Origin: Escherichia coli 042
GTDB lineage: Bacteria; Pseudomonadota; Gammaproteobacteria; Enterobacterales; Enterobacteriaceae
DNA length: 64,000 bases
NCBI RefSeq assembly: GCF_000027125.1
Contig: NC_017626.1
Strand: one strand, 5' to 3'
Made by a program: the position numbers. Of the stretch, positions 60,901 through 63,900 are shown piece by piece (position 1 is the first letter of the stretch; the number at the start of each line of letters is the position of its first letter).

Positions 60901-63900
60901 TAACTCGTTTTGAAGAGGCTAGCAAACTAGCAACAGAGAGACGTGAGGATATTCTTGAACTTGCTGGTGTTGGAACCGTAATGTCTGGTGTACTACATGA
61001 GCTCACTAGGACAACAGGCCACACTCGACAGCTGTTACAAAAGTTATCTAAAGATGAGTCTCCTGGTACTAAAGCTTTATTAACGAAGCTAGATTCGGAA
61101 ATTAAAGCGATCAATACGCGACTTCGACAGTTAGATCCTTTAACACCTTCTGGAAGGCATCGCAAAGAAATATTTAATTTGTCAGCATTGCTGAATACTA
61201 TATTAGAAGGGTATGGAGCTCGCTTTGAACGGCATAATATAATTCCAGAATTCAAAATCTCTGGAGTTGATGATACTCAACCTGTCGAAGTAAATATGGT
61301 ACGTGGTTTTGTTAGCCTTGCAATTGAGAATTTAATTACAAACTCGGTTTATTGGGTTCAGCAGGGGGGGAGAAGTGATCGTCGTATTACTTTAGAACTA
61401 GATGCAGAATCTAGGACATTAACTTTGCGTGATAATGGGCCAGGTATTTCTCCTGCAGATAAAGACAGAATTTTCACTGCAGGATTTACAATGCGACCTA
61501 AAGGGCAGGGTTTGGGTCTTTTCATTGCAGCTGAAGTGGCTACCTATCATGATGCGAGGCTTTTGTTGGACTCTGCTGATGAGGATGGCCGATATAGAGG
61601 TTTTGTCTTGGAGCTTCCAAAGGAATGATTATGGATATTCAAAAGTCATTTACTGAATCAAAAATTTTAAAAGTAGCGATCGTTGACGACGATTTGTCCG
61701 ATTTAATTACTATGGACGATCTGAATACTATAGACAAGGATATTGCCAGTTTGCTTGGTGATCCATCCGATCCTGATTGTGAAAGTTACCATGAACTACT
61801 AGCATCTGAAGGCTATGATCTTGACGAAATAGAAGATCTTGCTCAACCTCTTTCAAATAAATCAATTAGAGAAAAAGCTCCTGAGCGTCTAAAAAATGCG
61901 GCAAATAAAATTATCGAATTTCGTTATGATAACGCCAAGCCAATTAGACGTGTTAAACAATTACTACTGGAAGCTGGCATTTTAGAGGATAATATTCATT
62001 ATTATTTTAGCCCTGAAATACCTAATGAAGAGTTTTATGATCTTTTAGTGATAGATTACTTCTTGGTAAAAAATTCCTCCAAGCATACTTTACCTTTTAT
62101 CAAAAAAATACTCTCAACTCATGAAAAGGCACCAAAGCCTTTACAAGTTATTCTGATGTCGACTTATGAGGCAGAGTTAAAAGCAGAATTCAGGAATATT
62201 CGTCCCGAGATAAGAACTTCAAGCTCAAGAATGAGAATCATGAGCAAACCAATGTCTGATGATGATTTAGTATACTGGCGCTCTGCTTTGTTCCAGTTAT
62301 CTTCAGATCGACAATTTGTCGATGCAGTAGAAAAATTTGTTACTGAAACAATAAGTGGTTTTCAACATGCTGCACAAGAACAAGCTAAAAGATTATGGGA
62401 GCTTGATCTTCAGGCAATGGATATTCTCCATGAAGCTGCAACATCTGATAATGATGATTTTTGCCGCTATGTTGAAGAATGTCTAAGTAGACAATTATTA
62501 ACGGCTCTAGAAGAATGCTCTGGTATAAGAAAATCATTAGGTGTTTTAGGTGAATCATTAATAAAACATAGAGCTAACAACGTAATTGCGCCTGTTACTG
62601 AAATTGGTGATTCGAGGGCGGCAATTAGAACACTAATGAGGAGTATGGAATGGCGTGGGGGAAATACCCCTAGCATGACAGAGTTTAAAGACCCTAAAGA
62701 CAGAGCAAAGTGGATTCAGAAAAATCTGAGATTTGGAATGGTACTAAAATCACCAGATGATAAAAGATGGCTTAATTTAACTCAAGCGTGTGATCTTGCA
62801 CAAACAAAAGAGGATAATTTAAATTCGGTATCTCTCTTGCTTATTAGTGGTTCCTATGCTCGGCCAGTTGGACGTGAGAATGGGCAATCATTAGTGTATT
62901 TGAACACATCATTATCTGATGCAGGTAGTGAGGTTTTGTGTTGGGATGTACGTAATGTTCAAACGCCCTCAATATTTGATTTTGCTCAAACGTTTTATAA
63001 TGGCTGGTCAATTACTGGAGAGCTTCGTCTAGACCAGGCTCAAAGTATAGCTGCTTTATATAGTTCTCGAACTTTAAGGGTTGGTCTTCAAAAAAGGCTA
63101 AGTAGCTGGTGTCTTGATGGTAAAGCTTTATTCATAAACAAATTAAATAACAGCGCTCCAAGTGATAAAATCGAGGGTACGACTATTTCTGGTCATGCGA
63201 TGAATCGTGGTAAACCCGACGAAGTACATATCGATAAAGATAGCATGATAAAGCTTCAAAGAGATTTTCCTAATAGTATTAATAAAATATCTCTGAAATT
63301 ATATATGGGAATGCAGCTAAAGCCTGGTTCAAAAAACCAAGAAGAAGGTATTTTGATTTATTGTGCTGAAAAGCCGGAGAATATAGAATCACTTCGTAGG
63401 GCTATTAATGATAATGATTTTTTAAATCGTGATGTTAATCAAAATAAAGTGGTAATAGCTCTATGGCATAAGTGATTTGATTTATTGCTAATTTATCAGG
63501 TGTATTATTTTCTCAATGTGAGCTAATTATTTCTTTATTAGCTCACATTGATATCCATTTATGTTAAATGATAAGGGGAAATTGTACTATAAAATATAGA
63601 CCAGATTAATTTACCCCTTCTTTTTATTTATGGCAAATTGCGCATGAGCCTCCGCCTTCATCTTCCCCATAAATTTCATCAATATCAATGAGAGTCTCAC
63701 CAGGGCGTAGTGGGTTAATGATTTTTTTCGCTTTGAGTCTGGCTTGCCGCTTTTCAAAATCAGTGACAATTTGAGCAATTCTTTCAGGCTCCTCAAGTGA
63801 CTCTAGTGATTCACCTTTAGTCCAAGTAAAGGGAGAACCATGTTCAATTGCATTTTTTTCATATCGTTTAGCTTCTTCAAATGCCTCTGGGTGACGCTCT

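Follow-up and report, generated by a model that had tools for sequence, protein, structure and literature searches.

The window analysed here, a stretch of 64,000 nucleotides (nt) from Escherichia coli 042 (contig NC_017626.1), ends in the leuX region, where two overlapping genes on the plus strand lie next to the phosphorothioation gene sspD. Gene 1 (59244–61628, +) encodes a soluble histidine kinase of 794 amino acids, as judged from Pfam, NCBIfam and the conservation among homologues. Gene 2 (61625–63475, +) encodes, according to its open reading frame (ORF), an alignment and an AlphaFold2 model, a receiver followed by a helical linker, a domain with the MazF/ToxN fold and a C-terminal α/β domain. 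The 3′ end of sspD, the gene for a phosphoadenosine phosphosulfate (PAPS) reductase-like phosphorothioation enzyme, lies on the minus strand (63624–64000), and it translates into the same sequence as the C-terminus of its counterpart in E. coli 190693. The main functional clue, the neighbouring sspBCD genes, is located mostly beyond the window end, which cuts sspD so that its last 377 bases are included; in complete genomes, sspC and sspB come after.

An earlier note on this DNA had described gene 2 as an ORF of 616 codons with a receiver-like N-terminus, a long insert and an unassigned C-terminal output domain. The ORF was borne out, its likely true start being the third codon (ATG at 61631), which yields 614 amino acids beginning MDIQ, as in RefSeq and in homologues; residue numbers given below equal those of the database protein plus 2. 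Translational coupling links gene 2 to gene 1: the TGA stop codon of gene 1 (61626–61628) falls inside ATGATTATG, and gene 1 overlaps or adjoins gene 2 in every related locus.

Gene 2 is predicted to begin with a divergent receiver domain

Residues ~14–211 (61664–62257, +) were assigned to a receiver domain from Pfam family PF19192 (Response_reg_2), conservation, the structural model and profile matches to the PDB. Across 35 homologues (25–77% identity), D21, D22, D23, D139, D144, S179, K208 and P209 are invariant. In 29 distant relatives (13–33% identity), D21, D22, D144 and K208 show no variation and S179 almost none, while a 17-sequence alignment of the N-terminus retained as invariant columns only the start methionine, D21, D22, D144, S179 and K208. 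All codons singled out in the earlier note occupy the places it had given (D21–D23, 61685–61693; D144, 62054–62056; T180, 62162–62164; K208–P209, 62246–62251), and D21/D22, D144 and K208 stood as conserved receiver positions. T180 did not: position 180 is variable (T, S or Y), and the conserved hydroxyl is that of S179, which closes predicted strand 4.

The match to PF19192 is weak and partial (residues 139–198 on model positions 88–147 of 180; E = 4.6e-4), and just 2 of the 29 distant relatives match this family at E ≤ 0.001. A profile of the N-terminal region (residues 1–215) gave marginal matches in the PDB (E = 0.004–1), mostly to receivers, including 3eqz (E = 0.0036), 2qxy, SLN1, PhoB and PmrA. 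The 3eqz alignment places D144 on the receiver ‘ILD’ motif, the site of the phospho-acceptor aspartate, and ‘IvDDD’ on the strand-1 acidic pair. A full-length AlphaFold2 model of gene 2, built from the 35-sequence alignment (mean predicted local distance difference test score, pLDDT, of 84.7), contains strands at 17–20, 124–127, 140–144, 174–179 and 203–207 and helices at 155–165, 182–196 and 212–257. These correspond to five strands in canonical order with helices 3, 4 and 5, helix 2 not being predicted (residues 128–139 form a loop); D21/D22, D144, S179 and K208 sit at the C-terminal ends of predicted strands 1, 3, 4 and 5, respectively. When the full-length model was searched with Foldseek, receivers ranked low, the best receiver-containing match being 6zxb (probability 0.75). 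The PF19192 match, the receivers among the PDB matches and five catalytic positions invariant in very distant relatives uphold the receiver-like identity, and we regard the prediction from sequence of a divergent two-component receiver at the N-terminus of gene 2 as secure.

About 120 residues had been said to separate the acidic pocket from the phospho-acceptor, which was taken to suggest an inserted subdomain. The count between D23 and D144 is 121, and the gap arises because a conserved helical insert replaces helix 1. In the AlphaFold2 model, this insert of ~85 residues (residues ~30–116; 61712–61972, +) is all-helical, lies between receiver strands 1 and 2 and is predicted with high confidence (pLDDT mostly 83–94). 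L33, D46, L76, A92, R100 and L114 are invariant within it among the 35 homologues, which argues for a genuine subdomain rather than a loose linker. On the other side of the receiver, the model and conservation delineate a region (62258–62650, +) composed of the long helix 5 (residues 212–257) and a helical bundle (residues 262–342), in which W218, Q224, L225, R229, E236, F238, D261, A264, L268, D275, Y282, R289 and E296 are invariant. As modelled, helix 5 and the bundle likely constitute a signal-transmitting linker.

The output region of gene 2 is modelled with a toxin fold

The C-terminal part of gene 2 had been described as showing no recognisable motif and as a possible effector. For the sequence this holds, as residues 230–616 are blank in Pfam, NCBIfam, PADLOC and PDB sequence searches, and the whole protein returned nothing besides the weak PF19192 match when searched against PADLOC, NCBIfam and, by sequence, the PDB. 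A Foldseek search of the PDB with the gene 2 model, by contrast, retrieved MazF toxins as hits 1–10 (probability 1.0; target template-modelling score 0.56–0.71; E = 0.007–0.12), and of the 15 top-ranked structural neighbours of the output domain, 14 are endoribonuclease toxins. The output core (residues ~357–487; 62693–63085, +; span taken from secondary structure) is thus predicted to have the MazF/Kid/CcdB/ToxN fold, which is an assignment of fold and not of enzymatic activity. It is followed by an α/β subdomain (residues ~493–616; 63101–63472, +) without a convincing structural neighbour.

The toxin-fold part is the most conserved stretch of the C-terminal region. The motif LN(L/I)TQ(A/S)CD (N384, T386, Q387, C389, D390) as well as R468, D470 and R485 are invariant among the 35 homologues, and G371, C389, D390 and G409 even in the 29 relatives of 13–33% identity. 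No winged-helix, LuxR/GerE, Fis or similar DNA-binding output domain from Pfam or NCBIfam was found in gene 2. With a conserved core of toxin fold and neither a DNA-binding nor another benign output detected, the region is sustained as an effector candidate. The earlier note had named in advance two outcomes that would speak against its reading of gene 2, namely the lack of any Response_reg match together with a wrong fold, and a benign C-terminal domain; neither occurred.

A search of 1.84 billion representative proteins with the C-terminal profile gave 62 matches, all of them either proteins of ~615–730 amino acids with the same placement of the domain or fragments, and none of these 62 fuses the output domain to any other architecture. 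Distant relatives match profile positions ~27–155 alone, i.e. the toxin-fold part. At least 95 AFDB50 entries match the C-terminal region at E ≤ 0.001; the 50 matches listed are nearly all ‘response receiver domain’ or uncharacterized proteins of ~560–745 amino acids, cover both C-terminal subdomains and come from Salmonella, Acinetobacter, Pantoea, Rhizobium, Nocardioides and others. The toxin-fold output thus seems to be shared as standard by all of PF19192 and to occur nowhere else. Among 50,697 phage records, no relative of gene 2 was detected.

At the level of sequence, searching the PDB with a profile of the C-terminal alignment gave nothing above noise, and comparison of this alignment with five approximate MazF-family sequences by hhalign was not significant (probability 0.08%). 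The best local match, GELRLDQAQSIA against the approximate MazF segment GVALADQVKSIA, was not used as evidence because the motif can also be placed at the start of the C-terminal helix of the fold.

Gene 1 combines a MORC-like ATPase with a histidine kinase

From its N-terminus, the gene 1 protein comprises a MORC/MutL-like GHKL ATPase, a dimerisation and histidine phosphotransfer domain with H585, and a C-terminal catalytic ATPase domain. Pfam assigns HATPase_c_3 (21–46 and 118–203), HATPase_c (691–793) and, weakly, HEF_HK (583–634; E = 0.065); in NCBIfam, residues 116–260 resemble the BbrUII/HgiDII restriction-enzyme ATPase module (7e-19) and residues 572–789 AtoS-type kinases (3e-17). H585–E586 and both sets of nucleotide-binding motifs are invariant in 21 gene 1 homologues (41–85% identity). 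The predicted phospho-histidine H585 (VLHELTR; codon 60996–60998, +) lies inside the weak HEF_HK match, and the H+4 residue of the H-box (HELTR, 60996–61010) is an invariant arginine, R589. At family level, the HEF_HK H-box lacks the H+4 T/N of HisKA phosphatase motifs. The gene 1 kinase may be unable to dephosphorylate its own receiver, which would fit a one-way trigger. Neither gene 1 nor gene 2 encodes a transmembrane sensor domain or a DNA-binding output.

In three of the nine E. coli assemblies that carry the pair (see below), 1-nt deletions split gene 1, located in an A8 run (59566–59573) and a G7 run (61358–61364); gene 2 is uninterrupted in all nine. One of the split assemblies otherwise differs at GATC sites alone. 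Genuine inactivation of gene 1 was therefore judged improbable: homopolymer deletions accompanied by GATC-only differences point to sequencing error as likelier than phase variation, although slippage may play a part.

The pair is linked to sspBCD in three proteobacterial classes

Genes for SspB, SspC or SspD lie within ~10 kb of the kinase/receiver pair in 17 of the 17 loci with enough flanking sequence; two further contigs end too early for adjacency to be judged and are outside this count. The 17 loci derive from E. coli, two Pectobacterium and two Pseudomonas species, Dokdonella, Pseudoxanthomonas, Citrobacter, Salmonella, Polaromonas, Rhizorhabdus, Agrobacterium, Sinorhizobium and four metagenomic contigs, and thereby cover three proteobacterial classes, chromosomes and plasmids, four gene orders and relatives of widely varying divergence. 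In E. coli 190693, PADLOC identifies SspD (1e-140), SspC (E = 0) and SspB (7e-115) in convergent orientation after the pair, and tblastn with the E. coli SspB, SspC and SspD proteins confirmed the ssp assignments across loci.

The convergent order (pair, then sspD-C-B on the opposite strand) recurs in Pectobacterium including P. carotovorum, in Citrobacter, Pseudomonas xantholysinigenes and Pseudomonas abyssi. In Dokdonella, Pseudoxanthomonas, a metagenome clade of 30% identity and a relative of 21% identity, the pair follows sspB-C-D(-A) in a same-strand operon, the kinase gene starting 14–63 nt after the ssp genes. A relative of 16% identity has the pair first and then sspA-B-C-D on the same strand, and one short contig still shows sspD beside the pair. 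Salmonella Livingstone has a divergent order, with SspE (PADLOC E = 0) on the far side of sspBCD. On Polaromonas plasmid pPNAP02, genes for SspG and SspH (SspFGH confirmed by PADLOC), kinase and receiver precede a convergent sspDCB, and on Rhizorhabdus wittichii pSWIT01 the pair is followed by an XRE gene and sspABCD. In Agrobacterium and Sinorhizobium plasmids, the pair stands beside two hypothetical proteins and an FtsK/SpoIIIE-domain protein, read as sspFGH-like; sspABCD was recognised there by annotation (DUF4007, a large ATP-binding or hypothetical protein, PAPS reductase and cysteine desulfurase).

The same 9 of 5,426 complete E. coli genomes carry both the pair and this sspBCD allele, and across loci, kinase identities co-vary with SspB/SspC identities, if weakly (rho 0.62–0.71, n = 11). 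Such a pattern bears on the possibility that the pair is independent of phosphorothioation, either sharing defence islands with ssp merely as a neighbour or acting as an ordinary housekeeping two-component system. Defence genes do cluster in islands, and the published analysis of the family stressed methylase and restriction–modification (R-M) neighbours with no mention of ssp, its text naming neither phosphorothioation nor DUF4007 nor PAPS reductase (PMC8011034). In none of the 17 loci, the E. coli island included, does a methylase-based R-M gene (C5-methyltransferase or Vsr) stand beside the pair. Adjacency in 17 of 17 loci of such taxonomic spread and variable gene order, shared operons among them, the exact co-occurrence in E. 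coli, the co-variation of identities and the lack of a transmembrane sensor or DNA-binding output in either protein make independence highly unlikely.

The pair occurs as the sole partner of sspBCD, with SspE or with SspFGH. In E. coli, Pectobacterium, Pseudomonas, Citrobacter, Dokdonella, Pseudoxanthomonas and Rhizorhabdus, the 9–20 kb of flanking sequence inspected showed no further partner. One might suppose that the pair is itself the restriction arm, comparable to SspFGH or DndFGH, and attacks DNA devoid of phosphorothioate, its output nicking DNA or poisoning gyrase in the manner of CcdB. We doubt this reading, given that neither protein has a recognisable nuclease domain (PD-(D/E)xK, HNH, GIY-YIG and others), and that a redundant restriction role is less obvious where SspE or SspFGH is also present. 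To our knowledge, those members of the fold that have been characterised are RNA-cleaving toxins or gyrase poisons, and none restricts DNA.

The same coexistence implies that the pair need not be a restriction partner and could be regulatory. A phosphorylated receiver might tune SspBCD, SspE or SspFGH, or the pair might sense sulfur or redox state, with the toxin-like domain serving as a non-catalytic binder. Coexistence with complete SspBCD-SspE and SspBCD-SspFGH systems would suit such a role, as would the CcdB branch of the fold, which acts by binding, and the fact that catalytic residues could not be mapped; an epigenetic role has moreover been raised for nuclease-less Ssp (PMC12421847). 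A purely regulatory function nonetheless seems unlikely to us: in most loci the inspected flanks showed no other partner, there is no DNA-binding output, the structural neighbours are overwhelmingly endoribonuclease toxins, and the residues conserved family-wide (C389, D390) or in closer homologues (N384, T386, Q387, R468, D470) look more like an active site than a binding surface.

The distribution of the pair is patchy. A search of 100,044 species genomes for related loci with the closer alignment yielded four, and a protein search with the broad alignment returned the same 83 proteins and no others. Two protein-cluster look-ups contained no Acinetobacter members, and one A. baumannii protein is among the AFDB structural relatives of the output region. 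In A. baumannii, a histidine-kinase two-component system has been described beside a nuclease-less Ssp system (PMC12421847). This two-component system possibly belongs to the same family as gene 1 and gene 2. Within the literature library searched, no paper joined sspBCD with the term ‘histidine kinase’. In a survey of 2,678 sspBCD loci, 84% had neither SspE nor SspFGH, and further partners were suggested (PMC8092258); 2,211 ‘orphan’ loci come from that work.

Several of the loci show additional features. In Dokdonella (locus L006), sspC of the sspBCDA-kinase-receiver operon is apparently split into two ORFs, and directly after the receiver gene, but on the other strand, comes a DndB-family gene (11894–13162). 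The island of Salmonella Livingstone (15411–22367) is a dense defence island that adds a helicase-PLD protein, an Mrr-like gene and BrxL. An XRE regulator (10997–11278) is located between the receiver gene and sspA on R. wittichii pSWIT01, and a HEPN-domain protein (4533–5450) just upstream of the kinase gene in locus L011. In P. xantholysinigenes (locus L005), a ScoMcrA-like SRA protein (6303–7430; SRA_ScoMcrA; PADLOC type IV methyl-directed restriction enzyme, 7e-20) is encoded directly upstream of the kinase. ScoMcrA-type enzymes target modified DNA, and the presence of such a protein together with sspBCD is curious.

Relation to known families and systems

Gene 1 and gene 2 form a divergent member of a catalogued family, and the pairing of receiver and kinase is not new. 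PF19192 and PF19191 (HEF_HK) were defined from Pectobacterium genes (Bellieny-Rabelo, Pretorius & Moleleki 2021, PMC8011034). In that work, receiver-like proteins and soluble kinases with HATPase_c_3, HEF_HK and HATPase_c domains showed 91.6% linkage, loop extensions in the receivers were noted, and the kinases were derived from paraMORC ATPases of R-M contexts; the receiver-like proteins, including their C-terminal ~400 residues, had no other known domain (PMC8011034). Our pair shares with this family a soluble kinase next to a protein of ~620–650 amino acids with an N-terminal extended-loop receiver, and close homologues of gene 2 are named ‘Response receiver domain-containing protein’ in UniProt. 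The family is known, however, from type II R-M systems with C5-methylases, whereas the pair studied here adjoins sspBCD and carries an output with the predicted MazF/ToxN fold. The toxin-fold output and the tight coupling to ssp have, as far as we found, not been described before; based on the model, this would be the first structural assignment for the ~400-residue unassigned output of PF19192.

A functional parallel is Detocs, an anti-phage system composed of a kinase (DtcA), a buffer receiver (DtcB) and a receiver-effector (DtcC) that in 80% of cases carries a purine nucleoside phosphorylase (PNP) domain; defence is lost when the histidine or aspartate is mutated, and the effector is toxic on its own (Rousset et al. 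2023, bioRxiv 10.1101/2023.01.24.525353). Both systems pair a histidine kinase with a receiver fused to an effector where a DNA-binding domain would be expected. They differ in that the present one consists of two genes, with no stand-alone or buffer receiver and no PNP domain. The Detocs sensor consists of tetratricopeptide repeats, that of gene 1 is a GHKL/MORC-like ATPase; the Detocs effector is a PNP ATP nucleosidase, whereas gene 2 combines a predicted MazF/ToxN fold with an 85-residue receiver insert and linkage to DNA modification. PADLOC gave no match to Detocs (the presence of Detocs models in that release was not checked).

Toxins of the MazF/ToxN fold are normally under antitoxin control. 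Gene 2 departs from MazF, Kid (PemK) and CcdB as well as from ToxN, AbiQ and CptN in that sequence similarity to them is not detectable and that the domain is embedded in a multidomain protein of 616 residues; in place of an antitoxin protein or RNA, control would presumably be exerted by phosphorylation.

With SspE and SspFGH (PMC8092258; PMC13251355), the pair has in common a position directly beside sspBCD, the ability to be combined around one modification module and a patchy horizontal distribution. It differs in its presumed phosphorelay, as opposed to a GTPase-nuclease or a Walker A/FtsK-like translocase complex, and PADLOC, which holds models for SspE, SspF, SspG and SspH, detected no homology of gene 1 or gene 2 to any of the four. 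That the pair itself represents SspFGH was considered and dismissed, because SspF carries a Walker A motif, SspH resembles FtsK, and no PADLOC model for these proteins matched. The MADS system was likewise dismissed: PADLOC has mad models, and only SspH touched one of them (mad8).

Guards of the PrrC/EcoprrI type are RNases held by an R-M system that fire when this system is attacked. They resemble the present pair as an RNA-targeting toxin fold tied to a DNA modification/restriction locus, alongside bona fide restriction partners. There is no homology, and the coupling proposed here is phosphotransfer and not direct binding, so that the parallel is an analogy only.

A putative defensive relay coupled to phosphorothioation

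We propose, with a probability of roughly 50%, that gene 1 and gene 2 form a defensive two-component relay with a toxin-fold effector that works together with SspBCD phosphorothioation. Direct support comes from the domain identities, the conservation of phosphorelay residues, the toxin fold and the linkage to ssp in every locus inspected; from these we infer which way the signal passes, what the cue is, which enzymatic activity results and that the system serves in defence. In this scheme, gene 1, as a MORC/MutL-type GHKL ATPase that presumably engages DNA, would monitor DNA or the Ssp machinery. The cue would most plausibly be the absence or presence of the phosphorothioate mark on DNA, or a disturbance of the Ssp machinery, upon which gene 1 would autophosphorylate at H585 and phosphorylate gene 2 at D144. 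This change would then be relayed through helix 5 and the helical bundle to the MazF/ToxN-fold domain and switch it on, perhaps through dimerisation, since MazF-type toxins act as dimers and receivers commonly dimerise, the latter through their α4-β5-α5 face. The output activity would most likely be that of an endoribonuclease, with RNA cleavage leading to growth arrest or aborted infection. By analogy, a relay from kinase to receiver-effector as an anti-phage system would have its precedent in Detocs.

Several points weigh against this proposal. The likeness to MazF exists at the level of fold only, Pfam finding no toxin in gene 2 or the 29 distant relatives; the conserved TQxCD and RxD residues could not be equated with known catalytic residues, and CcdB, a gyrase poison without nuclease activity, belongs to the same fold. 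An antitoxin was not found, there being no small ORF up- or downstream of gene 2 (tandem repeats were not scanned), nor is a DtcB-like buffer receiver encoded, which leaves protection from self-toxicity unexplained. PADLOC makes no defence-gene call for the pair. The loci with ssp linkage were collected via homology to the pair and are not a sample of all family members. The presence of SspE in Salmonella, SspFGH in Polaromonas and SspFGH-like genes in Agrobacterium and Sinorhizobium shows that the pair need not be the restriction partner, and the neighbours of the wider family are enriched in R-M genes, above all C5-methylases and Vsr (PMC8011034).

Because SspE or SspFGH is present in some of the genomes, the pair may act as a second-line layer, either guard or abortive, and not as the restriction enzyme itself. 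More tentatively, it could represent a third, mechanistically new class of SspBCD partner, in which a DNA-engaging GHKL ATPase of paraMORC type would read phosphorothioate status or Ssp integrity and His-to-Asp phosphotransfer would turn this signal into the activity of a MazF/ToxN-fold RNase.

Orphan sspBCD may serve in defence or have an epigenetic role (PMC8092258; PMC12421847). A mobile, conserved kinase/receiver-toxin module that travels with sspBCD is a concrete candidate for the missing arm. If the proposed relay exists, it would be the second case, after Detocs, in which two-component signalling is used directly as immunity; such signalling would here connect with DNA modification and with a toxin fold otherwise held by antitoxins. 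On the more tentative reading as a third class of partner, abortive infection would be tied to an epigenetic self-mark, and some of the 84% of sspBCD loci without SspE or SspFGH would be accounted for, among them possibly the Ssp system of A. baumannii global clone 2, which has no nuclease. Key candidate residues are H585 of gene 1 and D144, C389, D390, R468 and D470 of gene 2.

The pair is carried by a genomic island at leuX

The island harbouring the pair has its integration site at leuX, a tRNA-Leu (CAA) gene (57438–57522, +; ARAGORN), upstream of which the core genes yjgR and ahr are encoded on the minus strand. Downstream follows the P4-type tyrosine integrase of the island (57722–58975, +), an ORF of 417 amino acids annotated as tyrosine recombinase in RefSeq; in Pectobacterium and Citrobacter, too, an Arm-DNA-bind_3/Phage_integrase gene of the same kind is present with the module. 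The far border of the island is undefined, as a search of the 26 kb downstream gave no direct repeat of the tRNA 3′ end. Across the last 6 kb of the window, the G+C content falls from ~0.52 to 0.36–0.42, and all five genes (the pair and sspBCD) share a G+C content of 36–40%, compared with ~49% in the flanking core. In the nine E. coli genomes, the 4.2-kb kinase/receiver stretch is chromosomal every time and at least 99.9% identical, the genes being annotated as ‘sensor histidine kinase’ and ‘hypothetical protein’.

Gene 2 and sspD converge, and the 148 nt that separate them contain an inverted repeat (63513–63551, strand not assigned) with perfect 15-bp arms (TCAATGTGAGCTAAT and ATTAGCTCACATTGA), a 9-nt loop and a fold energy of –21 kcal/mol. 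This hairpin is probably a bidirectional terminator; a consensus terminator scan did not pick it up. A promoter scan returned sites no more numerous than expected by chance. Elsewhere in the window, low-G+C stretches occur at 42001–44000 (0.37) and 4001–6000 (0.42), against ~0.52, which suggests further horizontally acquired segments.

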